Source of the DNA: an uncultured Syntrophaceae bacterium
GTDB taxonomy: Bacteria > Desulfobacterota > Syntrophia > Syntrophales > UBA2185
Assembly: GCA_903893135.1 (NCBI GenBank)
Contig: CAITLA010000273.1
Coordinates: forward strand, 1 to 51,811
Length of the DNA: 51,811 bases
Direction of reading: 5' to 3'
Shown: positions 3,993-37,252 of the stretch, one piece after another
Layout: each line of letters begins with the position of its first letter
How positions within the stretch are numbered: the first letter of the stretch is position 1
Position numbers and translations under genes: made by a program
The notes under the pieces: generated by a model
What the model was told of the DNA's origin: nothing
Seen by the model: the letters and a program-made list of their open reading frames with translations, nothing else
Database searches by the model: none

Positions 3993-4061
3993 GGGGCTGT
4001 TTCATCTCTCTCATTTCGCCCCCTTTGACAAAAGAAGATTGTGTCCCAATTAAGAAATACC

Positions 4062-4129
4062 GCCGGGTCAGGTGACCCGGCCTCCAGCAAAACAGAATGT
4101 AGGCCGCGTGACTCACGCGGCGAGACATT
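4062..4129. repeat. Pair of perfect palindromic hairpins (REP-like)
   Basis: CCGGGTCA-GG-TGACCCGG at 4063-4080 and GCCGCGTGA-C-TCACGCGGC at 4103-4121. The second is flanked by AATGT...ACATT. The pair lies in the non-coding gap after the wza-wzc block. Confidence 0.7.
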
Positions 4130-4258
4130 ACGACACAGTCTCAAGGGGGTGAGAGGGAGAAATCCTTGTCCCGAGCAAATTGATGCTGTCCCTGCTTTTC
4201 ATTGTCTTGTGACCAGGAGTGTGATATAAAAAAGTGAATGGAATGGCTATAAACAAAT

Positions 4259-4585
4259 ATGAAACAACCCGCTGAAATTCATGACCTGCCCCCGATGATG
4301 ACCGAAAAGGATCAAATGGAAAAACTATCGCCAATATATTGGGATGTTGATGTGGATCCGGATGCGCTCCAGCGGCTCCTTCGCGGCGACACTGAGAGGA
4401 TAGGCCACATTGATCGAATTAGTCTATATCGACGGCTGCTCATGACCTACGACTGGTATACCCTGCTGGCGTTGATTCCCCCTGACAAGCTGCGGGAGGC
4501 CTTGAGCGATCCCGTTCTGGAACATCTCCATCCCGTAAACCTCAGGGATCGTTTTCTCTATGCCCGAAACATTCTATTCAGCTAA
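4259..4585 (+). CDS. Hypothetical helical protein, upstream partner of the AbiEii-type nucleotidyltransferase (antitoxin-like position)
   Basis: 108-aa ORF overlapping the next gene by 26 nt. This is the usual position of the cognate partner in AbiE-type two-gene modules. I am not sure of the family. Confidence 0.5.
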   Translation: MKQPAEIHDLPPMMTEKDQMEKLSPIYWDVDVDPDALQRLLRGDTERIGHIDRISLYRRLLMTYDWYTLLALIPPDKLREALSDPVLEHLHPVNLRDRFLYARNILFS

Positions 4586-5240
4586 GATCTACCCTTTCAT
4601 GGACACGATTATGGCGCTGGTTCGTCGGGCGGATACGTCGTTTTATCTCACCGGTGGGACAGCGCTCGGCAGGCATTATCTTAACCATCGCTATTCCGAC
4701 GATCTGGATTTTTTTATCAATCAGGCGAATGATTTCCGGGATCAAGTCAAAAAGGTACTTGAGGAGCTTCGCCTCGGCGGAATTCTGTTTGATCCTGGCA
4801 CGGCAGCAGACACTTTTGTGCGGATTCTGATACGCGAGGGAGACACACCCCTTAAGATCGATTTCGTCAATGACGTAGCTTTTCACTATGGAGATTTTCA
4901 GGAGGCGCCTTTTTATCCCCGCATTGACCATTGGCGCAACATACTGTCGAACAAGCTGTGCGCTCTGAGCCGGAAGGAGCCCAAGGATATGGCCGACATT
5001 CTGTTCATCTCTCAGAATTTCTCATTTTCTTGGACGGAGATTTTCAGAGAAGCCCGGCAGAAGGATCTCTGGGTCGAACCCCTGGAAATTTCCAGAATAA
5101 TACATGATTTTCCGTTGGACCTGTTCGGAGCAGTTCGGTGGATAAAGACACCCGATTGGGGCAAGTTGGCAGAAGGTATAATCAAATTGCATGAGGATAT
5201 TTTCCACGGCCGGAAAAACTCCCTATACCCCGCAAATTAG
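4560..5240 (+). CDS. Nucleotidyltransferase, AbiEii/AbiGii toxin family (DUF1814-like)
   Basis: N-terminal signature FYLTGGTALGRHYLNHRYSDDLDFF (GGTAL...R.S.DLDF) is typical of AbiEii-type nucleotidyltransferases. The start is uncertain; in-frame ATGs also occur at 4599 and 4611. Confidence 0.7.
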   Translation: MPETFYSAKIYPFMDTIMALVRRADTSFYLTGGTALGRHYLNHRYSDDLDFFINQANDFRDQVKKVLEELRLGGILFDPGTAADTFVRILIREGDTPLKIDFVNDVAFHYGDFQEAPFYPRIDHWRNILSNKLCALSRKEPKDMADILFISQNFSFSWTEIFREARQKDLWVEPLEISRIIHDFPLDLFGAVRWIKTPDWGKLAEGIIKLHEDIFHGRKNSLYPAN

Positions 5241-5325
5241 TAAGATGCAGGACATCGTCTCTATATTACGGATCAAGGAAGAGATTCGTTGGGAAACGAT
5301 ATACACCGAACAAAGAGGTGTCGCT

Positions 5326-5508
5326 ATGGAACATCCTTCTGTAAAAGATTATGTCAAGATACCGAAACAGGAATATAACCTGCTCAAGAAAGTCTACCGC
5401 ACTGTCAAGCGTCAAGCATTTCTCGTACGACTTAATGAATCTGAACGGAATCTTGCTGCGGGCAAGACTAAAGCAATTTCCGTTGACGATTTTATTGACG
5501 CCGTGTAA
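5326..5508 (+). CDS. Small antitoxin-like protein (resembles the C-terminal half of Phd/YefM); no cognate toxin downstream
   Basis: ATG at 5326 is preceded by AGAGGTG. The 60-aa product IPKQEYNLLKKVYRTVKRQAFLVRLNESERNLAAGKTKAISVDDFI resembles the YefM pattern ...EEYNSLEET...L..S...L..GK.... Confidence 0.35.
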   Translation: MEHPSVKDYVKIPKQEYNLLKKVYRTVKRQAFLVRLNESERNLAAGKTKAISVDDFIDAV

Positions 5509-5577
5509 ACGGTATGAAACCGAAATCAATTCATTAAGGTCCTTTACCACTAACCCCTCACGCATTTATGTCCGACC

Positions 5578-6987
5578 ATGCTTAAACTCACTCACGCAGA
5601 AATAGATTCCAAAGCCATATTCTTACTGGCAATGGTCGTTGCAATAACGCTCGCTGGGGGGTTCCTCATTACAAAGGCCGTCCCGGGGATTGCTTTTGCC
5701 GTGATTGCCGCTTTCGCTATCGGAATCGTCAGCTTTGTCAATACAGAAATCGCCCTTTATATCCTGATCGCTTCCATGCTCCTTGGACCACAGTTTGTTG
5801 TGGGAGAACCAACAGAATTGCCTGGCCGCGGGCGTGGGTTTACGCTACGCATGGACGACATCCTTCTTGTCATCATAGGATTGAGCTGGTTTTTAAAAAC
5901 CGCTATCAGAAAAGAATTAGCGCTCCTTATACGAACACCATTAAACGGACCCATTACATACTATTTTGTTGTCTGCCTGATTTCAACACTCTTTGGATAT
6001 ATGATGGGAAGAGTAAAAGGAATCACAGGATTATTTTTTCTTTTGAAATACTTTGAATATTTTATCGTATACTTCATTGCCGTAAACCATCTTAAGGAAA
6101 AAAAACAGATCGAGCGGCTCCTGTTTACCATCCTGGGTGTTTGCTTTGTCGTTTGCATAGTTGCTATCTATCAAGTACCAGCGGGTGGCCGGGTCTCCGC
6201 ACCATTTGAAGGCCCGGAAGGTGAACCCAATACGCTTGGAGGCTATCTTGTTCTCATGCTCTCCATCGTCCTGGGTCTTTTGCTGACCCACGGTTCCAGA
6301 AAACAGAAAATCTTTTTGGGCACTCTCTCCTTTTTCATCGTGATTTCTCTTGCTGCGACGCTTTCCAGAGCCTCCTGGGTTTCACTTATTCCCATGGTCA
6401 TGACGCTCCTCTATTTTAGTAAAAGAAAGTGGCCCATCATTTTGGTATTAATCATTATTGTTTTAATATCTCCGTTTATCTTGCCCAAAAGTGTTAAGGA
6501 AAGGGTATCTTTTACTTTTACTCAACCGAAGGAAAGAGGACAGGTCACCGTCGGCGCAACAAGGCTTGACACCTCAACATCCGCCAGGTTTATGGCGTGG
6601 AAAAATACTCTTGAAAAAGATTTCGTCACTCAGCCAATACTGGGCTACGGCATTACGGGATATCGTTTTCTGGATGCGCAATATCCACGCATCCTTGCCG
6701 AGACGGGACTTTTAGGACTTCTCACCTTCTTAATTCTTCTTTTTTCGATCTATATGAATACCTTACACACATACATGGGCACCTCAGACCCACTTTTCAG
6801 TGGTCTTTCTCTCGGCTATCTTGCCGGCTTTATTGCCATGATTACACATGGTATAGGAACCAACACCTTCATCATCGTCCGCATCATGGAACCATTCTGG
6901 TTTCTGACTGCCATGATAATAATGATCCCGGAAATTGAGAAAGCAGCACCAACAGAACCGTTGAAAATCGAAACGCCTTTGGCATAA
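5578..6987 (+). CDS. O-antigen ligase / Wzy-like polymerase family membrane protein
   Basis: 469 aa with about 10-12 TM segments. It has the Wzy_C-type motif LSRASWVSLIP and a periplasmic loop. It sits between wzc and wzx. Confidence 0.8.
   Translation: MLKLTHAEIDSKAIFLLAMVVAITLAGGFLITKAVPGIAFAVIAAFAIGIVSFVNTEIALYILIASMLLGPQFVVGEPTELPGRGRGFTLRMDDILLVIIGLSWFLKTAIRKELALLIRTPLNGPITYYFVVCLISTLFGYMMGRVKGITGLFFLLKYFEYFIVYFIAVNHLKEKKQIERLLFTILGVCFVVCIVAIYQVPAGGRVSAPFEGPEGEPNTLGGYLVLMLSIVLGLLLTHGSRKQKIFLGTLSFFIVISLAATLSRASWVSLIPMVMTLLYFSKRKWPIILVLIIIVLISPFILPKSVKERVSFTFTQPKERGQVTVGATRLDTSTSARFMAWKNTLEKDFVTQPILGYGITGYRFLDAQYPRILAETGLLGLLTFLILLFSIYMNTLHTYMGTSDPLFSGLSLGYLAGFIAMITHGIGTNTFIIVRIMEPFWFLTAMIIMIPEIEKAAPTEPLKIETPLA
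6571..6938 (+). repeat. Left copy of a 368-bp direct repeat (partner at 7871-8238, offset exactly 1300 bp)
   Basis: The two copies align by eye without indels. The last 88 bp (6851-6938 and 8151-8238) are identical; the earlier part has scattered substitutions. Confidence 0.9.
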
Positions 6988-7130
6988 TATCTCTTAGTCG
7001 TGCCGACGAGGTAATCGGGAATTCTAAATTTGAAAATCGTCTTTCGTCGGCAATAATTAGACTGGGCCGAATATCAATCGGCTCTCCATCATAGATAGTA
7101 TGTAGATTTAATTGGCTGGACTTTTAAGTT

Positions 7131-7817
7131 ATGTGTAATGCATTCTGCATTTTATTCGGGGCAATGAATTTGACGAGTGAGGAAATTAATGGGAGACAGG
7201 TACTTGAAGTCGGGGCATGTAACGTTAATGGAAGTCTGCGTCCCCTTATCGAATCTTGGTGTCCATCAAAATACATAGGCGTAGACATCGTTGAGGGAGT
7301 CGGCGTTGATGAAATTTGTAGTGCTTATAATGTAGTAAACAAATTCGGCAAGGAAAGTTTTGATATCATAATATCTACAGAAATGCTCGAGCATGTGAGG
7401 GACTGGAGAAATGTCATTTCTAACCTTAAGAATGTTTGCAAGCCAAACGGCATCCTATTACTAACTACACGCACAAGAGAAGCTGAATTCCATGCGTGGC
7501 CTTATGATTTTTGGAGATATGAAATTGAAGATATGAGAAATATCTTCCCCGATTTCATTATCGAAAAACTCGAATATGATAAATTTAGCCCTGGCATATT
7601 CTTAAAGGCCAAAAAGCCACTTGATTTTGTCGAACATAACCTCTCTTCCATTCAATTGTATTCCATCATTACAGAAAGTCGAATCATCGATATAGATGAA
7701 AAAACGATCACGTCTTTTAACAGGAAGTATCGAATGTACCTGATGTTAAGAAATAGTTACCTATCGGTCGGAACTTTCATTTCCAAGATCATAAAACGCG
7801 TACTGAATATTAAATAA
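7131..7817 (+). CDS. Class I SAM-dependent methyltransferase
   Basis: Motif I-like VLEVGACNVNGS and post-I/II FDIIISTEMLEHV. The sequence is visibly AT-richer than the flanking genes. It lies between the two copies of the 368-bp repeat. Confidence 0.75.
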   Translation: MCNAFCILFGAMNLTSEEINGRQVLEVGACNVNGSLRPLIESWCPSKYIGVDIVEGVGVDEICSAYNVVNKFGKESFDIIISTEMLEHVRDWRNVISNLKNVCKPNGILLLTTRTREAEFHAWPYDFWRYEIEDMRNIFPDFIIEKLEYDKFSPGIFLKAKKPLDFVEHNLSSIQLYSIITESRIIDIDEKTITSFNRKYRMYLMLRNSYLSVGTFISKIIKRVLNIK

Positions 7818-7870
7818 GAGGGGCTAAATACGTCAAGAAATGATGTGATCGATCATGGTCCCTCAGTAAT

Positions 7871-8266
7871 ACCTCAACGTCCGGCAGGCTTCAATCATGG
7901 AAAAATGTTCTGGAAGAAGATTTCATCAGTCAGCCAATACTGGTCTATGGCATTACAGGATATCGTTTTCTGGATGCGCAATATCCACGCGTCCTTGCCG
8001 AGACGGGACTTTTAGGACTTCTCACCTTCTTCATTCTTCTTTTTTCCATCTATATGAATGCCTTACATACGTATAGGGGCACCGCAGACTCCCTTTTTAG
8101 CGGTCTTTCTCTCGGTTATCTTGCGGGCTTTACGGCAATGCTCGCACATTGTATAGGAACCAACACCTTCATCATCGTCCGCATCATGGAACCATTCTGG
8201 TTTCTGACTGCCATGATAATAATGATCCCGGAAATTGAAGCAGAAGCAAAAAGAGTGGCAATTTAG
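7871..8266 (+). pseudogene. 3' fragment (about 130 codons) of a second O-antigen ligase/Wzy-like gene
   Basis: Frame 2 is open from 7844 with no ATG before 8054. The translation TSTSGRLQSWKNVLEEDFISQPILVYGITGYRFLDAQYPRVLAETGLLG... parallels residues about 332-455 of the 5578-6987 product. Its C-terminal tail differs (AEAKRVAI). Confidence 0.8.
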
Positions 8267-8690
8267 GATATAAGAATTTAGATAGGATGCAACAGACAGC
8301 TTTTGAATATTTTTATTCGAACATTTTACTGAGAATATGAAGAAGAGTAATTACAAAACTTCTTTCGCCAAGCCTCGCAAGCTACTATTCAGTAAGTGTT
8401 AATCCTATAATAGATCCGCCTCTGTGGTTTGATAATTTCTCAAGAATTCAATTGGAAAATAGAGTAAGTAGAAATAGATTTTGTTGGATCCAGACATTAA
8501 ATCCTGAGGCTAAAGAAAATGTGCCTAAAATAATCATGGGTGATTATTCATCAATAGTATAATGGGGGCGACGATATCAGCTGCAAGACAAATCGTTGCC
8601 GCAGTCAGTCTTGCCGGAGTAATTAAGAAATACTCTGAGACTACCCAAGCATGGGTCTCGCCAACTTGAATAAAACCATCATCTAATCTC

Positions 8691-9992
8691 ATGGGTCAAT
8701 TTACAAGGAATATCGGCGAATCAATGGTCACCTCTATCGCCTCGTTGATTCTCGGGATGATACTTTCCATTGTGCTGGCTCGCTACTTACAGCCAGAAGG
8801 TTATGGTAAATACTCCTTTATTTTTTTAGTTTGCTTTCTCGTATACCAGGTCAGCCATCTTTCAATTTCTGGTGCGAATATATTTCTTGTGGGAAAAAGA
8901 ATATTCAGTCCTTCTCAAACCGGTACCGCCTCTTTGATTATCTCTTTTGGTTTAGGTCTTGTCGGACTTCTTTTATTCGGACTCATAGCAAACCTGGGAC
9001 CTATCAGGGAAGAAATTATCCAAAAAGGAATAGGATATAATTTGCTTTGGATTGCAGTAGCGACAGTGCCTATTCTGATGCTTTCAGACAACCTGAAAGG
9101 TATTTTCCTTGGAATGGAGAAAATACGCCTTGTCAACATCCTACTGCTCTCGTACTTAGGTTTTCAGTTGTTTTCTAGTTTTATTTTTGTGGTCTTATTA
9201 AAAATGGAGCTTACCGGGGCGATTGTTGCCTACTTGTTAGCCAACATAGCAGGGTCATTCTTAGTTTTAGCTTGTTTTATGAGATCACCAAATTTTGAGA
9301 AGGTTCACTTTGCCTCTTATATAAAGCAAGCGCTGGCCTATTCCTGGAAACTTCACCTTGGAGCCATCGTCTTTTTCTTGATCTATAGACTGGACGTGTT
9401 CCTCATCGTATATTTAACAGGAGACATGGTGGCTGTGGGATTTTATGCGGCTGCAGTAGGGTTTGCAGAAAAAATTGATATCATCCCCCGCGTCGTTTCG
9501 AGTGTGCTTTTCCCAAGGATAACGACGATAACAAAAGAAGAGGTCCGCAAATATGGTCCTTTTCTTTCACGAATGACTTTATTGCTTGGCGGACTTCTGG
9601 CGTTGTTCCTGGCTACTATCTCCTACTACGTGGTTGTGCTGTTATTGGGCGTAGAATATGAGTCAGCAGTTATTCCGCTCTGTATCCTTCTGCCAGGTAC
9701 TGTTTTTCTTGGTGGAGGACGCATAGTGAGTACTGAGCTTATGGGACAGGGAAAGACCGATATTCTTGCTGTAGCAAATTGCACCGCCTTGGTCTTCAAT
9801 GTAGTTTTAAATTTGTTATTTATTCCTAAATTCGGCATAAATGCCGCTGCAGCCGTTTCTTCCATTACATACGCCGTTATGTTTATCATTGAATTACGGG
9901 GCTCCTCGCAGCTATCAGGTCTTTCTGTCTCGGAATATTTAATACCGCGGAAAGATGATTTCTTTGAAATTCGCCGACAGCTGTTATCATAA
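8691..9992 (+). CDS. Wzx-type oligosaccharide flippase (MOP superfamily polysaccharide biosynthesis protein)
   Basis: 433 aa with about 12 TM helices. Typical Polysacc_synt organisation and locus context. Confidence 0.85.
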   Translation: MGQFTRNIGESMVTSIASLILGMILSIVLARYLQPEGYGKYSFIFLVCFLVYQVSHLSISGANIFLVGKRIFSPSQTGTASLIISFGLGLVGLLLFGLIANLGPIREEIIQKGIGYNLLWIAVATVPILMLSDNLKGIFLGMEKIRLVNILLLSYLGFQLFSSFIFVVLLKMELTGAIVAYLLANIAGSFLVLACFMRSPNFEKVHFASYIKQALAYSWKLHLGAIVFFLIYRLDVFLIVYLTGDMVAVGFYAAAVGFAEKIDIIPRVVSSVLFPRITTITKEEVRKYGPFLSRMTLLLGGLLALFLATISYYVVVLLLGVEYESAVIPLCILLPGTVFLGGGRIVSTELMGQGKTDILAVANCTALVFNVVLNLLFIPKFGINAAAAVSSITYAVMFIIELRGSSQLSGLSVSEYLIPRKDDFFEIRRQLLS

Positions 9993-10130
9993 TTACACTT
10001 CTTGTCGAATTTCTTAGCAAATTAAAGGGGTCATTCGTGACATTCATATCGCGAAGACCGGTTTCCATCAAACATATGCTCGTCCGTCTGATCTCATCTG
10101 AAAAAAGTTTTGACAGGTTAGTGAACTAAC

Positions 10131-11351
10131 ATGCACATTTGTATTATTTCTGCATTTGCAATTACAGAAAAAGATAACTTGGGAGGCGTCCACACCCATA
10201 CTGAAATGCTTTCAAATATCTTAACTAAAATGGGGAACAAAGTTACCTTTATTACTGCTGGTGATCAGAACGAATCTCATGAAAAGACGATCAATGGTAT
10301 CAGAGTTATCTTTACTCCAGGCAGCAAGACTGAAGTGGTGGATAAGGAGTGGATAAGAAATCTTTGTAATACTTTTAACGAACTCCAAAAGAAGGATCCC
10401 GTTGACTGCATTTTTTCCGAAGGTTATTATGCCTACGGTCTGCAGGGCCATCATATTTTTAGTAAAGTCCCGATTGTTACCTTTGTACATAATTTTCATC
10501 TAACTCAGTTTTACAAGAACTTCAGTGAAGTGCGGAGCATCCGATCACTTGCAAGTTATGTTTTTAAAACCGTCCCACGTTTGGTCTTCAGGATGCTGAA
10601 ATTTGAAATCCCGTTCTTTCAAAGTTCTCATTTCGTCATTTCTGTCTCTGAGCTGAATGCCAAATACCTTCAGAATGTATATATGATTCCGAAACACAAA
10701 CTTAGTGTAATACATAACTGGGTGAACGTAGATGAGTTCAGCCCGAACTACTCTTATAAATCTGAATATAGAAGACGGTTCCATCTTTCCAAGGATACCA
10801 TCGTTTTCCTACTGGTTGGTGCTCTATGGAGACCTAAAGGATTTCATGTCGCTATTAAATCTTTTATTAAATTTGTTGAGCGGTTTCCGGATGCTCTCTT
10901 GATGATCGCTGGCACTGGGGTAGACGAAGAAAGTTTGCGAAAACTCGTTGCTGAAAATAATTTGATTACGGACAGAGTTAGATTTTTAGGTTTGTGGAAA
11001 CATTCCGAGCTACCATACCTTTACAATTTGGCGGATATCTTCTTAATACCGTCCATACACCCGGAAGGACATGCCTATACTTTGATTGAAGCGATGTCCT
11101 GTGGACTTCCATCAATTGCAACAAAATTGGGGGGGAACATCGAGACCATTGGCGACGCAGGAATCTTAGTCCCACCAAGGGATGAAGATGCCATGCTAAA
11201 GTCAATGATTGAATTGGCACAAGATGCCCGGAAAAGAGAGTATCTTTCTCACAACGCAAGGGAACGAGTCTTAGAATATTTTTCCGAAAAGATAGCGTCC
11301 GAAAAATTCCTGTCGCTTCTTGCCAAGATTCCTCCCGAGAAAAGGCATTAG
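10131..11351 (+). CDS. Glycosyltransferase family 4 (GT-B, retaining)
   Basis: C-terminal EX7E region PSIHPEGHAYTLIEAMSCGLP, plus GG..E..GDAG. It is a paralogue of the 12048-13325 product. Confidence 0.9.
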   Translation: MHICIISAFAITEKDNLGGVHTHTEMLSNILTKMGNKVTFITAGDQNESHEKTINGIRVIFTPGSKTEVVDKEWIRNLCNTFNELQKKDPVDCIFSEGYYAYGLQGHHIFSKVPIVTFVHNFHLTQFYKNFSEVRSIRSLASYVFKTVPRLVFRMLKFEIPFFQSSHFVISVSELNAKYLQNVYMIPKHKLSVIHNWVNVDEFSPNYSYKSEYRRRFHLSKDTIVFLLVGALWRPKGFHVAIKSFIKFVERFPDALLMIAGTGVDEESLRKLVAENNLITDRVRFLGLWKHSELPYLYNLADIFLIPSIHPEGHAYTLIEAMSCGLPSIATKLGGNIETIGDAGILVPPRDEDAMLKSMIELAQDARKREYLSHNARERVLEYFSEKIASEKFLSLLAKIPPEKRH

Positions 11352-11363
11352 GTCAAAGATCCC

Positions 11364-12014
11364 ATGTTTATTGATGAATCTCTATGGATTAAGAGCAACC
11401 TGAGTCAGTTGTATTTGCCGCCCAGAAGCCGCATTCTTGACATCGGCTCATCTACTACAGACTTTCGTGCAACGCAACCCCATATAACCGAAAATGTTTA
11501 TAGACCACTTAATGAAAGAGGCTTTGATATTATTCACTTTGATGCGCGGCCCGGCGATGGCATAGATATCGTAGGCGATATCGAAAATCCGGACATAATC
11601 GAGCAGATAGGAGAAAAATTCAATCTTGTGCTATGTGCCAACTTACTCGAACACGTATCTAACGTTGAAAGTACTGTAGGTAATGTAATTAACCTGGTAC
11701 GCAAGGATGGCTACCTTCTATTAACCGCACCTAACAAATATCCAAGACATGATGATCCGATAGATACCATGTATCGTCCATCAGACAGAGAATTACAAGA
11801 ACTGGCTTCCAGACACGCTGCCATAACGATTATTGCCTCTGAAATCTTAGACATTAGAAATCACATTTATTATTTTTATGAATCCAGGTATCCCTTTTGG
11901 GGCTACCGTAAATTCCGATTCTGGAGATATTATTTTAATCGCTTTCGATGGAAGCAGTCCTGTTTGCTCTTAAGAGTGCATTCACAATTCGATCGTTGCT
12001 TGGAAATCAGATGA
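11364..12014 (+). CDS. Class I SAM-dependent methyltransferase
   Basis: ILDIGSSTTDF (motif I) and FNLVLCANLLEHV. Confidence 0.75.
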   Translation: MFIDESLWIKSNLSQLYLPPRSRILDIGSSTTDFRATQPHITENVYRPLNERGFDIIHFDARPGDGIDIVGDIENPDIIEQIGEKFNLVLCANLLEHVSNVESTVGNVINLVRKDGYLLLTAPNKYPRHDDPIDTMYRPSDRELQELASRHAAITIIASEILDIRNHIYYFYESRYPFWGYRKFRFWRYYFNRFRWKQSCLLLRVHSQFDRCLEIR

Positions 12015-14720: not shown

Positions 14721-15392
14721 ATGAATAACATGAAATTGCATTATCGTGTCGCTATAGCAGCGGCAAAACAGTTCGATCAGTTTTTCGGAACATCGATGAA
14801 GGAAAGAGTCGGCCGCTTCTATAGATACTTTCTTAAAAAACTGTCACCAATTCGGAGGATGACTGACCCCTTATTAATTGAACTCCAATACTACCTTGCA
14901 ATAAAACGGCCAAAAAATCTGAAGCTTCATTTAGGATGCGGTTGGAAACACTTTACCGGCTATATCAACGTAGACCTCTGGATTACAGATGCAACGGACA
15001 TAATCTGTGACATTGCGTCGTTACCATGGCCAGATAACTCTGTAGACGTTATCGAAAGTTATCATGTCATTGAGCATATTTCGCATACAGAGATAAAGAA
15101 AACATTGAAAGAGTGGCACCGAGCACTAAGTTCTAATGGCAAACTAATTCTTGAATGTCCGAATTTTGACAGTGCTGTTCAGGAATATCTTGGAGGCAAC
15201 GAAGAACGGCTGCTTAATATTTTCGGAAGACAACGGTTCGATGGTGATTCCCATCTCTACGGATATAGTCCGCAGCGACTTACAAAATTGCTTACAGAAA
15301 TAGGATTCACTAATATCTGTGTGAAGGTTCCTCAAAGTTCGCAAAGTCTCGATGAACCATCTTTTCGTGTTGAATGTCAGAAAACCCTATAG
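14721..15392 (+). CDS. Class I SAM-dependent methyltransferase (type 11-like)
   Basis: LHLGCGWKHFTGYINVD and VDVIESYHVIEHI. Confidence 0.85.
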   Translation: MNNMKLHYRVAIAAAKQFDQFFGTSMKERVGRFYRYFLKKLSPIRRMTDPLLIELQYYLAIKRPKNLKLHLGCGWKHFTGYINVDLWITDATDIICDIASLPWPDNSVDVIESYHVIEHISHTEIKKTLKEWHRALSSNGKLILECPNFDSAVQEYLGGNEERLLNIFGRQRFDGDSHLYGYSPQRLTKLLTEIGFTNICVKVPQSSQSLDEPSFRVECQKTL

Positions 15393-15544
15393 AAAAAAGA
15401 AATATCCACGTCTTAATATACTCGCGTGGCATCATTTGCGGTGCTTATCGCATAATGGTAGATATTCTCAAAAATATCGACAGAAACAAGTTTCGACTTT
15501 CTGTTGCCTACAAACCGGAATATGATGATCCCAGTTCTCCTTAA
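15392..15544 (+). pseudogene. 5' fragment (about 50 codons) of a GT4 glycosyltransferase gene with no start codon
   Basis: Frame 2 reads EKRNIHVLIYSRGIICGAYRIMVDILKNIDRNKFRLSVAYKPEYDDPSSP*. This parallels the N-terminus of the 16478-17638 GT4 (INILMLSASLSLTGTHRILHDLVSGLDHQKFNISIAFKPEFSGP). Confidence 0.55.
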
Positions 15545-15648
15545 CTATGGTGTGGTATCGGTGTTGATGGAAAATGAGTATCGAGTGAGCGAATTTTCCG
15601 GTTCAGCAATCCGATTTGGGGCTGTTTCACCTGTTACTAGGAGCTTCT

Positions 15649-16437
15649 ATGATTACAGAATTATTTAGACAGCCGAAATATATCCTGACAATTACAAAAC
15701 TAAAACATATTTATGATGCGCTGAGAGAACCTCATCACGCTATAAAGGTATTTAAATACCACTATCGCAGAGTTTCCGAACCGGCTTTCATAGATTTTTT
15801 CTCCAAGCAATGGGGATGTTCAGATCGGGATATTATTCAAGCCTACACCGGATTAACTGATAACGCTCCTCTCTGGCAGGAAATCAAAGAGAAGCTCTCT
15901 GTTTACCCTAGCGGTTACGGCTTACAGATGACCAGGGAACTTCCCTGCCTTTATTTACTCATTAGATTGACACAGCCTGATACAGTAATAGAAACAGGAG
16001 TTTCGTCTGGCGCTTCTTCTACATATATTCTACGTTCTTTACACGATAACAATAGAGGCAGACTCTATTCCATAGACTTACCACCTGAGAATCTTCCAGA
16101 GGGTAAAGAGAGCGGTTGGATCGTGCCTCAATATCTCAGAAATAGATGGTCATTGCACATTGGCGATTCAAAGGAACTTTTGGAGCCACTATTGGATAGC
16201 GTTGGAGAAATTGACTGTTTCATGCACGATAGCCTTCATACCTATGAGCACATGTTGTGGGAATTTAGAACGGTATGGAAACACTTGAGATCAGGAGGGC
16301 TCCTTCTGTCTCATGATGTCGGCGCCAATGACGCATTTCTTGATTTTATGCAGGAAAAATGCATTCCATGGTCAAAATATCGTGTTGTTCATGTGCTCGG
16401 CGGATTCATAAAACCCAATGACCGGAAAAGGGATTGA
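15649..16437 (+). CDS. Class I SAM-dependent methyltransferase (Methyltransf_24 / CmcI-like)
   Basis: ATG at 15649 is preceded by AGGAG; the ORF track's TTG at 15616 is less likely. Motifs VIETGVSSGASSTYIL and LLLSHDV. Confidence 0.75.
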   Translation: MITELFRQPKYILTITKLKHIYDALREPHHAIKVFKYHYRRVSEPAFIDFFSKQWGCSDRDIIQAYTGLTDNAPLWQEIKEKLSVYPSGYGLQMTRELPCLYLLIRLTQPDTVIETGVSSGASSTYILRSLHDNNRGRLYSIDLPPENLPEGKESGWIVPQYLRNRWSLHIGDSKELLEPLLDSVGEIDCFMHDSLHTYEHMLWEFRTVWKHLRSGGLLLSHDVGANDAFLDFMQEKCIPWSKYRVVHVLGGFIKPNDRKRD

Positions 16438-16477
16438 GATTAATAGTTAATTTGCCAGACTAAAATAGCTCTTGAAA

Positions 16478-17638
16478 ATGAAACCAATCAACATATTAAT
16501 GCTTTCAGCATCATTAAGTTTGACGGGCACTCACCGCATTCTACATGATTTAGTTTCGGGACTCGATCATCAAAAGTTTAACATTTCGATTGCATTCAAA
16601 CCTGAATTCTCGGGACCAGGTAACGATCTTTTGGCATCTTTTAGTGATCAAGGCTTTTCAGTATATGCACTAGGAGGCCAGAAACTTTTTGGCATGCAAG
16701 GATTTCTGCAGCTTTATCAGGTCATTCGTAGAAACAAAATAGACATTATTCATTGCTGGGATGACCTAGTTATTATAGCACGATTTTTGAAGTTATTCAC
16801 TCGTTGCCATGTTATTGAAAGTCACGGTAACCCCGTTATGTCTAAGGGGTCTCTATCTTACTACTTGCTCAATAAACTTTCATCTATCCTATTGGATGGT
16901 GTTATATTTCAGTCGGAAGGGATAATGAAAAGTTATGAAAATACAAAAGTGATTTTTCTAAAAAGAATAAAGAAGTCTGTCATCCATAATTGCATAAACG
17001 CCAAAACGATTAATAAGACAACCTATAACAGGAGCGAGATAAAAAAGAGATTTGGTGTGGATGACAGAACAATAGTCTTGACAAATATTGGTTACTTTAA
17101 TGAACAAAAGGCACAAGAATTATTAATCCAATCGATAAAGATAGTGGTCGACAGAATTCTACAAGTCAAATTAATTATAGTAGGATGGGGACCTTTGGAA
17201 AACAAATTGCGCGAATTGGTGAAGACACTCAAAATCGAGGACAACGTAATATTTGCAGGCAAGCGTCAACATGAAGAAGTTTTTGAAATATTATCAATCA
17301 CCGATCTATTTGTCCTTTCTTCACTATGGGAGGGATTCGGCTTAGTGATTGGAGAAGCTATGGCCATGGGGAAACCGGTTGTTGCAACAGAAACCGACGG
17401 GAGCCAAGTTCTTGTCGTTGAAAATGAAACGGGGCTATTAGTTCCGCCAGGCGATCCTCGTGCCCTTGCCGCGGCCATTATTTCGCTAATCCGTGACCCG
17501 GAACGAAGAGCCAAGATGGGTGAACTCGGTAGAATCAGGGTTACTACTCTTTTCTCACCGGAGAAGTTTATTCAGGCACATGAATCCTTCTATACTAAAA
17601 TCCTCAATCGAGGCACAGATAAAAATGGAACCAAATAA
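16478..17638 (+). CDS. Glycosyltransferase family 4
   Basis: EX7E region SSLWEGFGLVIGEAMAMGKP. The ATG at 16478 lies inside the TTG-started ORF. Confidence 0.9.
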   Translation: MKPINILMLSASLSLTGTHRILHDLVSGLDHQKFNISIAFKPEFSGPGNDLLASFSDQGFSVYALGGQKLFGMQGFLQLYQVIRRNKIDIIHCWDDLVIIARFLKLFTRCHVIESHGNPVMSKGSLSYYLLNKLSSILLDGVIFQSEGIMKSYENTKVIFLKRIKKSVIHNCINAKTINKTTYNRSEIKKRFGVDDRTIVLTNIGYFNEQKAQELLIQSIKIVVDRILQVKLIIVGWGPLENKLRELVKTLKIEDNVIFAGKRQHEEVFEILSITDLFVLSSLWEGFGLVIGEAMAMGKPVVATETDGSQVLVVENETGLLVPPGDPRALAAAIISLIRDPERRAKMGELGRIRVTTLFSPEKFIQAHESFYTKILNRGTDKNGTK

Positions 17639-35752: not shown

Positions 35753-37252
35753 GTGTATCAATATGAAAAATGTGGAGAAGTTGTGCAAAGGTCTCAATAT
35801 AAGAATGAAGATGACTTTTTTAAAAAAATAATCCCATCCATCTCTATCATCCTTCTTTTTTTCGTTTTTTACATCACTGAATCTTACGGGACAGACTACC
35901 AACAAATTGCGGGGCTGATGGATCTCCGCACGACGTTCAGTGACGGCGCCTATGACATGGAGCAGCTTGTGCTCCTGGCGAAGAATAAGGGCTTCAGCGT
36001 CGTTTTCATCAATGACCACGACAGGGTTGCCATGGAGTATGGCCTGCCCCCTCTCCGGAACCTCATCAGAAAAAAGGTCGAGATGAACTCCATCAACAGT
36101 GGCGGCGCTGATAAATTCCTTCAAGCAATAAAGGATGTCCGGCAGAAGTATCCCGATATGATCATTGTCCCAGGCTCCGAGACGGCCCCTTTTTATTACT
36201 GGACGGGAAGCCCACTGAAAGGTAACCTTACCGCACACGACCATGAGAGGCGTCTTTTAACCGTTGGAATGGAGAGTCCGGATGATTATGAAAACCTCCC
36301 GATCCTCCATAACAATCTGTACATGAATTATTTCACGAAAGCTCTGCCGGAAGTTGTCCTGTTTTCTTTTTCCCTCATTGCATCTCTTCTTCTGTTTCGA
36401 TGGAGGGGATTGTTACGTGTCTCCGGCATTATTATTTTTATTCTATCCATAGCTTTTATTATAAACAGCAATCCTTTCAGGAGTTCTCCTTTCGATCCTT
36501 ACCATGGTGATCAGAAGATGGCGCCTTATCAGCTCGTGATCGATTACGTGAATTCAAGAGGGGGGATGACCTTCTGGAATTACCCCGAAACAGGCACCGG
36601 CGTCAGGGAAATGGGATCGATTCATGTGAGCACCCTCCCCTACCCCTATGTTCTGACAGAATCAAAGGATTATACAGGATTCGCTGCCCTCTATGGCGAT
36701 AATATTACGTTGACGGAACCAGGAAACATCTGGGATACGGCTCTGAAAGAGTATTCTTTAGGCTACAGAGATCGGCCTCCCTGGGGAATCGCCACGGCAG
36801 ATTTTCATCAGGAAGGGGAAGGTGGAGAGCGGTTGGGAACCTACCAGACCGTCTTTTTTGTCAAGGATAAGAAGAAAGACGCCGTCTTGAAGGCGCTAAG
36901 AAATGGTAGGATGTACGCATCTCAGGTCAATTACCCGCAGGTTTTGAAGCTCGAAGACTTTTCTGTCTCATCAGCAGACGATCAGATTAGAGGTATTTCA
37001 GGGGATGAGATCGCACTGAAAGAGTATCCAAGGGTGAGAATGTCTATTTCGACTTCTGTCCCTTCATCTGATAAAGTGAAGATACGCTTGATAAGGTCGG
37101 GGGAGATGATTTATCTTTTCGAGGAAAAACTGCCCCTGATAATCGATTATGTTGACCCGTACTATAAGCCGGGCGAAAGGATATATTACAGGATGGATTT
37201 ACACGGGACCGGTACGATCGTCTCCAATCCCGTCTTTGTGAAGTTTGAATAG
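35753..37252 (+). CDS. Membrane-associated PHP-domain-like protein with degenerate metal-binding motif
   Basis: GTG start 5 nt after AGGAG. DLRTTFSDGAYDMEQLVLLAKNKGFSVVFINDHD follows the PHP pattern DLHxHTxxSDG...IAITDHD, but HxH is replaced by RTT. There is an N-terminal signal anchor and an internal pair of TM helices. Confidence 0.5.
   Translation: MYQYEKCGEVVQRSQYKNEDDFFKKIIPSISIILLFFVFYITESYGTDYQQIAGLMDLRTTFSDGAYDMEQLVLLAKNKGFSVVFINDHDRVAMEYGLPPLRNLIRKKVEMNSINSGGADKFLQAIKDVRQKYPDMIIVPGSETAPFYYWTGSPLKGNLTAHDHERRLLTVGMESPDDYENLPILHNNLYMNYFTKALPEVVLFSFSLIASLLLFRWRGLLRVSGIIIFILSIAFIINSNPFRSSPFDPYHGDQKMAPYQLVIDYVNSRGGMTFWNYPETGTGVREMGSIHVSTLPYPYVLTESKDYTGFAALYGDNITLTEPGNIWDTALKEYSLGYRDRPPWGIATADFHQEGEGGERLGTYQTVFFVKDKKKDAVLKALRNGRMYASQVNYPQVLKLEDFSVSSADDQIRGISGDEIALKEYPRVRMSISTSVPSSDKVKIRLIRSGEMIYLFEEKLPLIIDYVDPYYKPGERIYYRMDLHGTGTIVSNPVFVKFE

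Follow-up and report, generated by a model that had tools for sequence, protein, structure and literature searches.

A diverged direct repeat at the 3′ end of an O-antigen-ligase-like gene as a candidate recombination scar in the exopolysaccharide locus of an uncultured syntrophic bacterium

Introduction

Surface-polysaccharide loci are the most recombinogenic parts of bacterial genomes, and detailed reconstructions of their rearrangements come almost entirely from pathogens. In Haemophilus influenzae, the duplicated cap b locus contains a truncated copy of bexA, and its direct repeats mediate loss or amplification of the locus. Two general mechanisms can leave duplicated or truncated genes behind: in homology-facilitated illegitimate recombination, homology anchors incoming DNA at one end only, the opposite end being joined without any, and in Campbell-type insertion-duplication a single crossover duplicates the target segment. 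The junctions of O-antigen gene clusters carry gene remnants and partial duplications, among them the wzy remnants of Salmonella groups B1 and D1 and the partial wzy duplication of group D3 (PMC3715488), and partial duplications generated by transformation are described in a further report (PMC3784515). Here we describe a direct repeat in contig CAITLA010000273.1 of assembly GCA_903893135.1, from an uncultured Syntrophaceae bacterium, in which the 3′ end of an intact O-antigen-ligase-like (Wzy_C) gene is followed, behind a single methyltransferase gene (MT), by a start-less second copy of that 3′ end.

The locus makes an exopolysaccharide of the Wzx/Wzy type, and the repeat lies in its strain-variable part. 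On balance, we consider it somewhat probable that this arrangement is a recombination scar produced there by the entry of a linear block of DNA and removed again by deletion in a sister strain, L084. Throughout, the window is the whole stretch that was analyzed (51.8 kb; 51,811 nt), to which all coordinates refer; the labels L001-L103 denote related loci or contigs, and X1-X8 denote sequencing runs.

Results

Structure of the direct repeat

Base-by-base comparison of 6571-6938 (copy 1) with 7871-8238 (copy 2) gave a gap-free alignment at an offset of exactly 1300 nt, in which 329 of the 368 positions were identical (89.4%) and the final 88 nt (6851-6938 and 8151-8238) were identical throughout. 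At the same offset, there was no similarity between the copies beyond these limits on either side. An automated repeat search reported 6571-6870 and 7871-8170 at a spacing of 1300, and the 51.8-kb window contains no other long dispersed direct repeat. Copy 1 is read in frame as part of the 469-aa Wzy_C open reading frame at 5578-6987, and the frame of copy 2, which is open from about 7847 to a stop at 8266, matches it. The encoded C-terminal ends differ, copy 2 ending in ...PEIEAEAKRVAI and copy 1 in ...PEIEKAAPTEPLKIETPLA, so that AEAKRVAI terminates copy 2 where copy 1 has KAAPTEPLKIETPLA. The sole gene between the copies encodes a 228-aa class I S-adenosylmethionine (SAM) methyltransferase (7131-7817), with a GC content of 37.4% compared to 44.4% for the ligase-like gene. 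An earlier sequence-only reading of the window had described precisely this arrangement, namely a repeat without indels whose last 88 bp are identical, an intact 469-aa ligase gene ending in the first copy, an orphan 3′ fragment with a different tail, and an AT-richer methyltransferase as the only gene in between, and each of these points was borne out. The features of the region are as follows.

5578-6987, forward strand: intact Wzy_C / O-antigen-ligase-like gene, 469 aa (open reading frame and Pfam PF04932), conserved neighbor of wzc where the variable part of the polysaccharide locus begins on the left
6571-6938, forward strand: first copy of the repeat, part of the intact gene (3′ segment), whose ortholog in L084 is 95% identical (nt)
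6658-6731, forward strand: tract A (within copy 1), a gene-conversion patch of 74 nt that matches 7958-8031 at 73/74 positions
6851-6938, forward strand: tract B in copy 1, 88 nt, identical to 8151-8238, a gene-conversion patch and the best substrate for a deleting crossover
6939-7038, forward strand: tail 1 and spacer, 15 codons and a stop to 6987, then about 50 nt of apparently native downstream spacer
7131-7817, forward strand: 228-aa class I SAM-dependent methyltransferase, Pfam Methyltransf_23/11, GC 37%
7818-7870, forward strand: spacer of 53 nt before copy 2, ending at the putative illegitimate junction
7871-8238, forward strand: repeat copy 2, an orphan start-less 3′ segment of an apparently foreign ligase allele, frame intact
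8239-8266, forward strand: tail 2, AEAKRVAI and a stop, shared with the single ligase of L084 (26/28 nt identical)
8267-9992, forward strand: AT-rich gap of 424 nt and wzx flippase gene (433 aa), the start of the block co-linear with copy 2 and tail 2, 92% nt identity in L084

Given 39 differences between the copies, an identical run of 88 bases has a probability of P = 0.0004 by permutation. Moreover, the copies differ by 19 amino-acid changes, compared to 27.7 expected under random substitution (P = 0.00075). The long identical run together with this deficit of amino-acid changes indicates that the repeat pattern did not arise by chance. Homology to the ligase gene begins abruptly at 7868-7871, after the 53-nt spacer. 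We found no integrase or transposase genes in 5578-8690, where only weak inverted repeats are present, and by inspection the 53-nt spacer contains no attC-like structure; the region qualifies neither as a mobile element nor as an integron cassette. A scan for promoters and terminators across 6800-8800 returned nothing beyond chance.

Support across assemblies and samples

A repeat of this kind might be produced by the assembly itself, as a chimera of two strains of which one carries ligase, tail 1 and MT, and the other ligase, tail 2 and wzx. The window comes from a freshwater-sediment metagenome, and several assemblies break at the repeat (L081 and L082 begin inside it), both of which would be in keeping with a chimera. 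We judged the structure from contigs and unitigs, so that linkage within a molecule rests on assemblies. L082, a MEGAHIT k141 contig from another assembly, is 100% identical to the window over 6839-11817 and, contrary to what a chimera would predict, runs onward through copy 2 into wzx; it phases the end of copy 1, tract B, tail 1, MT, the whole of copy 2 and tail 2, using words longer than either identical tract. The same gene order was present in three further assemblies from the European Nucleotide Archive (ENA). In the Logan unitigs of four samples, every copy-specific piece had a similar depth, and the shared 88-nt unitig had about twice the depth of its flanks in the four runs, which likewise argues against a chimera. 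A unitig covering 6909-7987 (X1/X2) spans tail 1 and MT and extends into the start-less fragment, demonstrating that the truncated copy behind MT is real. In addition, a read-length contig from X5, which belongs to an unrelated study, matches 7769-7919 exactly and covers the junction between MT and the fragment.

These data leave a chimera of two strains scarcely credible. The sequence-only reading had named an assembly artefact as the result that would undo it; the repeat is carried by independent assemblies and by the unitigs of four samples, and an artefact is thus unsupported. As far as contigs can show, the duplication was not created by assembly.

Gene conversion between the two copies

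Identity along the repeat is mosaic, amounting to 80.5% over the first 87 nt, 98.6% over tract A (74 nt), 82.4% over the next 119 nt and 100% over tract B (88 nt). Between genomes, tract A differs by 8-15% in non-sister relatives, and tract B differs by 8-22% in L004, L086, L001 and even in the sister L084. The two tracts are therefore not unusually conserved among genomes, and their near-identity within this genome is the mark of gene conversion. The sole difference in tract A is an A at 6691, private to copy 1 and replaced by G in all relatives, versus a G at 7991. In X1, a single 74-nt unitig of double depth (20.7) has A at 6691/7991 in both copies, and in X4 copy 2 also carries A; the window, X2 and X3 retain both bases. 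Since A is found in copy 2 of some samples only, the conversion from copy 1 to copy 2 is recent and polymorphic.

As a recombination substrate we counted perfect identity of more than about 25-30 bp accompanied by evidence of exchange. Tract A contains perfect stretches of 33 and 40 nt (all 74 nt in X1) and, together with tract B, falls within this definition. The two gene-conversion tracts show that the copies recombine with each other. Tract B of the window differs from L084 at 7 sites, no more than the rate of private changes in copy 1 nearby, and the states of this tract fix neither the direction of conversion nor the position of a crossover in L084.

Identity of copy 2

In the unconverted parts, copy 1 and copy 2 diverge by 18-20%, with dS 0.48, dN 0.13 and dN/dS 0.27. 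Copy 2 carries the family-majority residue at 11 of the 19 differing positions, and its V25 is the only residue never seen in 157 relatives (G in 154/157). Its motifs GRLQSWKNVLEEDF and FTAML.HC are present in other natural alleles, and it has neither indels nor stops. No second ligase copy was found in more than 80 related loci. The dN/dS ratio, the residue usage and the lack of a duplicate in relatives show that copy 2 did not arise as a duplicate made on the spot and left to decay.

If the ligase end had been duplicated in tandem and the second copy had then decayed in place, this would account for the fact that the copies are each other's best nucleotide match overall (89.4%), but this figure is driven by the two converted tracts. 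Outside tracts A and B, copy 1 is closer to L084 (93-98%) and to L004 (90-94%) than to copy 2 (80-82%), and the substitutions favor synonymous sites and residues of other alleles; copy 2 moreover contains neither indels nor stops, and the duplicate has no counterpart in any relative. We regard a tandem duplication as extremely improbable. Copy 2 is instead, as its sequence indicates, the little-altered 3′ end of another natural Wzy_C allele, one that was functional until recently.

A search for the donor among 5.8 billion proteins returned a best full-length match to copy 2 of 88%. A short-tailed clade of 461-462-aa ligases has the N-terminal motif of copy 2 and wzx directly 3′; neither the tails nor the wzx of this clade were demonstrably homologous to those in the window.

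Copy 1 has peculiarities of its own. Over 6648-6798 it carries eight private base changes in 150 nt, common to no relative, and at conserved positions it has the rare residues T for A (1/157) and M for R (1/157), at which the orphan copy has the consensus.

A sister strain with a single ligase

L084 is a metagenome contig that was found via the wzx protein and is 92-93% identical to the window at the nucleotide level (93.3% over 5578-6938 and 92.1% over 7871-11344). It has a single 462-aa ligase ending in AEAKRVAI, which is followed directly by the gap, wzx and a glycosyltransferase gene of family GT4, and it has neither the methyltransferase nor the repeat. The 3′ segment of its ligase is of the copy-1 type, and an in-silico recombinant of the two window copies has 462 aa, the same length as the L084 ligase. 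The sequence-only reading had predicted that recombination between the copies would delete the methyltransferase and regenerate an in-frame ligase with the alternative tail, and such a product indeed exists in L084 as the 462-aa ligase with tail 2. The in-frame outcome thus holds, but it is trivial for any in-register exchange between copies in the same frame. We favor the view that L084 is a deletion product rather than an empty site.

We also considered L084 as a hybrid of copy 1 and copy 2 in its middle segment, as a Campbell crossover in tract A would give. This was rejected because, wherever L084 and copy 2 agree, it is copy 1 that carries a private change, found in no relative.

The 424-nt AT-rich non-coding gap (8267-8690) is kept in L084 (1872-2295) in both length and position, indicating that it is older than the split between the window and L084 lineages.

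Origin and polarity of the scar

The reading that we prefer, entry of a linear block, can be set out in steps. The resident locus would have had the order ligase, tail 1, spacer and MT. A foreign linear block, consisting of a ligase 3′ fragment (copy 2), tail 2, the gap, wzx, GT4 and a second methyltransferase gene (MT2), would then have entered, its left end being joined illegitimately 53 bp behind the resident MT gene, and the resident ligase with its ancestral tail 1 would have stayed intact upstream. Since then, the copies have exchanged sequence by RecA-type gene conversion, as the 74- and 88-nt patches show, and these patches are the only stretches long and identical enough for efficient crossover. 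A crossover there would remove tail 1, MT and most of copy 2 and leave a 462-aa ligase with tail 2; this form exists in L084, where it may have arisen by deletion. The expected outcome would be the one-way loss of one polysaccharide methylation, and the ligase fragment would have no function of its own.

In the closest relatives, L002, L003, L004 and L086, the ligase tail is of the same EIEK..PLK.. type as tail 1, and local alignment of tail 1 and its spacer with the ligase end and spacer of L086 gave a score of 43, compared to a maximum of 28 among shuffles. Since tail 1 is typical of the clade and its spacer resembles that of L086, the region appears to consist of two native co-linear units, with only the 7870/7871 joint being non-native. 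A linear block is also favored because this history needs two ligase alleles, not three.

Under the opposite polarity, the L084-like order would be ancestral, and a unit comprising a foreign ligase 3′ segment, tail 1, spacer and MT would have entered by a Campbell-type single crossover that duplicated the target segment; MT would then be the newly acquired cassette, as the sequence-only reading proposed. The order of full gene, tail 1, MT, fragment and tail 2 is indeed the product of a single crossover with a circle. Copy 1 and tail 2 are both L084-like and copy 2 is foreign, the nearest outside relative of both tail 1 and copy 2 is L086, and MT has a lower GC content and homologues in another type of locus. 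However, such an insertion requires a circular intermediate of odd composition and three ligase alleles (the resident, the source of tail 2, and the source of copy 2 and tail 1) rather than two. Tail 1 is moreover the ancestral tail of the resident clade and sits on a resident-type gene, and the shift from L004-like to L086-like sequence toward the 3′ end is also seen in L084 and is thus not specific to tail 1. When the copies were compared for traces of a Campbell-type event, the gene order fitted, copy 1 was resident-like and copy 2 was foreign throughout except in the converted tracts, and no reciprocal hybrid pattern that would locate a crossover was left in them. Insertion of the MT unit is therefore an alternative that we take seriously and consider rather unlikely. 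With respect to the scar of cassette acquisition that had been proposed from the sequence, a recombination scar at the ligase 3′ end stands; MT as the acquired cassette is uncertain, and co-linearity favors the block with the ligase fragment as the incoming DNA.

A further candidate, a block from 7871 to about 12030 that interrupted a conserved adjacency between MT and the 425-aa GT4, was rejected because the 425-aa GT4 of the window is only 27% identical (a partial match) to the GT4 that follows MT in L001, L089 and L094. Its orthologue is the GT4 of L004 (73%). In comparisons with L004 and L084, identity is 87-93% for the wzc-ligase part and 92% for the wzx block, and it falls to 79% against L004 further downstream.

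Several points count against the entry of a linear block with subsequent deletion in L084. The same data fit an L084-like ancestor that received the 1.3-kb unit, and polarity is thus unproven. No full-length ligase that combines copy-2-type sequence with tail 2 was found (best 88%), so that the donor is hypothetical, and the wzx of the short-tailed ligase clade is unrelated to that of the window. The native partners of MT, wzm-wzt, are absent, so that a further deletion must be assumed. To fit the B tract of L084 to a crossover inside tract B, an earlier conversion has to be assumed. Finally, the linkage of these elements on a single molecule is supported by assemblies, not reads.

Deletion variants in the population

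Where 74-88 identical bases recur at a distance of 1.3 kb, rare RecA-dependent deletion is possible. The sequence-only reading went further and saw in the repeat a possible genetic switch for one methylation. A working switch at the population level would entail frequent loss of the 1.3-kb unit, perhaps its regain via an excised circle, and mixed methylation, and the perfect 74- and 88-nt tracts could serve as its substrates. Over 6560-8300, the unitig depths in X1 (left1 12.4, mid1 7.3, tail 1-MT-left2 9.4, mid2 13.6 and tail 2 11.4) fit approximately 7 parental, 3 deleted and 2 converted genomes, and about one quarter deletion or conversion variants could be read from them, but the fit is marginal (chi-square p about 0.06), X2 and X4 do not show the pattern, and the low GC content of MT is a confounder. 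Positions 1-289 of L081 (BUCK21-1 scaffold_379) are 100% identical to 7950-8238 and are joined via tract B to tail 1 and MT. This joint of mid2, tract B and tail 1 is expected of a switch that excises a circle; it could stem from the 1.3-kb unit as an excised circle, from a duplication in tandem or from a copy 1 that has been converted, but the start of L081 could also be a mis-resolved repeat.

Among the contigs of eight runs, none carried the deletion joint, although contigs cannot exclude rare variants; X5-X8 yielded only scattered read-length pieces, none with a deletion joint. Deletion is also irreversible without re-acquisition, and there is neither an invertase nor a slippery tract, nor any other machinery for switching. 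The two hallmarks of a phase-variation switch, both states in one population and interconversion in two directions, were not observed. With deletion running one way, no joint contig in the eight runs and depth hints in X1 that are not significant, the genetic switch proposed earlier is unsupported, and we consider frequent switching very improbable.

It is also conceivable, if improbable, that the 1.3-kb unit of ligase end, tail and MT is an integrase-free cassette driven by RecA, which would leave as a circle via its flanking repeats and, through one crossover within the almost invariant final 90 nt of the ligase gene, integrate into that gene in other strains. If this were the case, genes for modifying enzymes would move among polysaccharide loci with a conserved gene end as their "attachment site", and the joint in L081 would be a trace of such RecA-driven movement.

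The methyltransferase between the copies

The MT protein scored 48.6 bits against PF13489 (cut-off 27) and 37.7 bits against PF08241 (cut-off 21.2), which places it among class I methyltransferases. Its closest homologues (75-76% aa identity) are always encoded directly 3′ of wzm-wzt, with a Wzt that has the Wzt_C domain, in glycan loci of the ABC-transporter type. This neighborhood suggests a chain-end methylase of ABC-type pathways. WbdD-type chain-terminating methyltransferases act with the C-terminal carbohydrate-binding domain of Wzt in ABC-transporter-dependent O-antigen pathways, and WbdD itself has additional kinase and coiled-coil domains. The homologues of MT resemble the WbdD systems in their position next to a Wzt with Wzt_C. 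Unlike WbdD, however, MT is a bare domain of 228 aa that lacks the kinase and coiled-coil parts, the link to WbdD is made via gene neighborhood, a sequence search of the Protein Data Bank (PDB) with MT returned no match, and the window contains neither wzm nor wzt. With a single domain and no such partners, MT does not qualify as a WbdD-type chain-terminating enzyme. A search of 6988-7130 for remains of wzm or wzt gave nothing above shuffles. MT may have been left over from a former version of the locus that was of the ABC type, or a sugar of the repeat unit may now be its methylation target.

The ligase-like gene and its locus

The full ligase-like protein matches PF04932 at residues 251-384 with 39.7 bits (cut-off 31.7) and thus belongs to this family. 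Its score against TIGR03097 is 38.7, compared to a cut-off of 188. The 139-aa fragment alone has no Pfam match, and in NCBIfam it gave only sub-threshold matches to the ends of the HpsL and IctB models. The locus has the order wzc (1066 aa), an AbiEii islet, the ligase-like gene, MT, the fragment, the 424-nt gap, wzx, GT4 and a methyltransferase gene, followed by approximately 30 kb more of glycosyltransferase, methyltransferase and sugar-modification genes.

We found 509 related ligase loci, mostly in Syntrophales and other Desulfobacterota and all with a single copy of the gene, and the ligase-like gene adjoins wzc in hundreds of Desulfobacterota loci. The genes 3′ of the ligase vary, being wzm-wzt in L001, L086 and L094, wzx in L098 and L102, and others in L004, and the protein tail beyond "IP-x-IE" is hypervariable among relatives. 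Given the variable downstream genes and the hypervariable tail, the strain-variable region has its left border where the ligase gene ends (3′). In L001-L103, the partnership of the Wzy_C gene with wza-wzc holds with either wzm-wzt or wzx types downstream. From sequence comparison, a pathway-independent, WaaL-like ligase seems to fit better than a polymerase specific for one repeat unit. A 499-aa open reading frame without a Pfam match (35753-37252) could be the true polymerase.

The closest relatives lack the AbiEii toxin-antitoxin islet (3993-5570) that separates wzc from the ligase gene. At the position of the islet, L004 has about 350 nt, and L084, L086 and L103 have a gene for a four-helix-bundle protein of the 23S-rRNA-IVP / bAvd type; L102 has an AbiEii gene in addition to the IVP gene.

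A second scar is present further downstream, where a start-less frame (15389-15540) directly follows the stop of a 223-aa methyltransferase gene. Over 51 aa, its translation shares 31% identity (pairwise E = 1e-9) with the N-terminus of a GT4 whose gene (16472-17638) follows 1 kb downstream, and between the frame and this gene lies a Methyltransf_24 gene (15616-16437). This scar is much more diverged than the ligase repeat, and no nucleotide similarity is left.

In X7, from a soil metagenome, a read-length contig over 8175-8239 carries tract B with 5 differences in 65 nt, followed by a third, unrelated tail (TCAACTATGCTTCTTGAGC...). The same run also contains matches of 98-99% to the MT gene.

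Discussion

The record of an uncultured syntrophic sediment bacterium brings together a scar, the apparent foreign origin of one of its copies, ongoing conversion between them, and a sister allele that lacks the methyltransferase. In this clade, the conserved 3′ end of the wzc-adjacent ligase gene marks the left recombination boundary of the variable region, and a testable prediction follows, namely that one methyltransferase is lost via the identical tracts of 74-88 nt.

The closest parallel is provided by the wzy remnants of Salmonella. There, as here, a truncated and non-functional piece of a gene for a polysaccharide-processing membrane protein stays in the cluster, sits at the border of blocks with different ancestry, and allows the descent of one serotype-like form from another to be traced. 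The present fragment differs in that it appears to be a foreign allele of a gene that is still intact 1.3 kb upstream; because of this, the pair forms a direct repeat with documented gene conversion, unlike the Salmonella remnants. Furthermore, the form that lacks the intervening gene is represented by a sister strain, the organism is an uncultured member of the Syntrophales and not an enterobacterium, and there is no insertion sequence (IS) or H-repeat at the joint.

The cap b locus of H. influenzae is similar in that RecA-dependent exchange between direct repeats alters the gene content of a glycan locus, and one of its repeats likewise contains a truncated gene. In our case, however, the repeats are 368 nt long and about 11% diverged, there are no flanking IS elements, the unit lost would be the gene for a single modifying enzyme and not a whole locus, and the process is known from sequence comparison. 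As in homology-facilitated illegitimate recombination or Campbell-type insertion-duplication, a truncated donor gene would have been left beside the resident genes, or a target would have been duplicated; the mechanism is inferred here from the end product alone. The event is thus of an ordinary kind, one of the gene remnants that mark the junctions of glycan loci, which invokes no new mechanism and is here unusually well documented.

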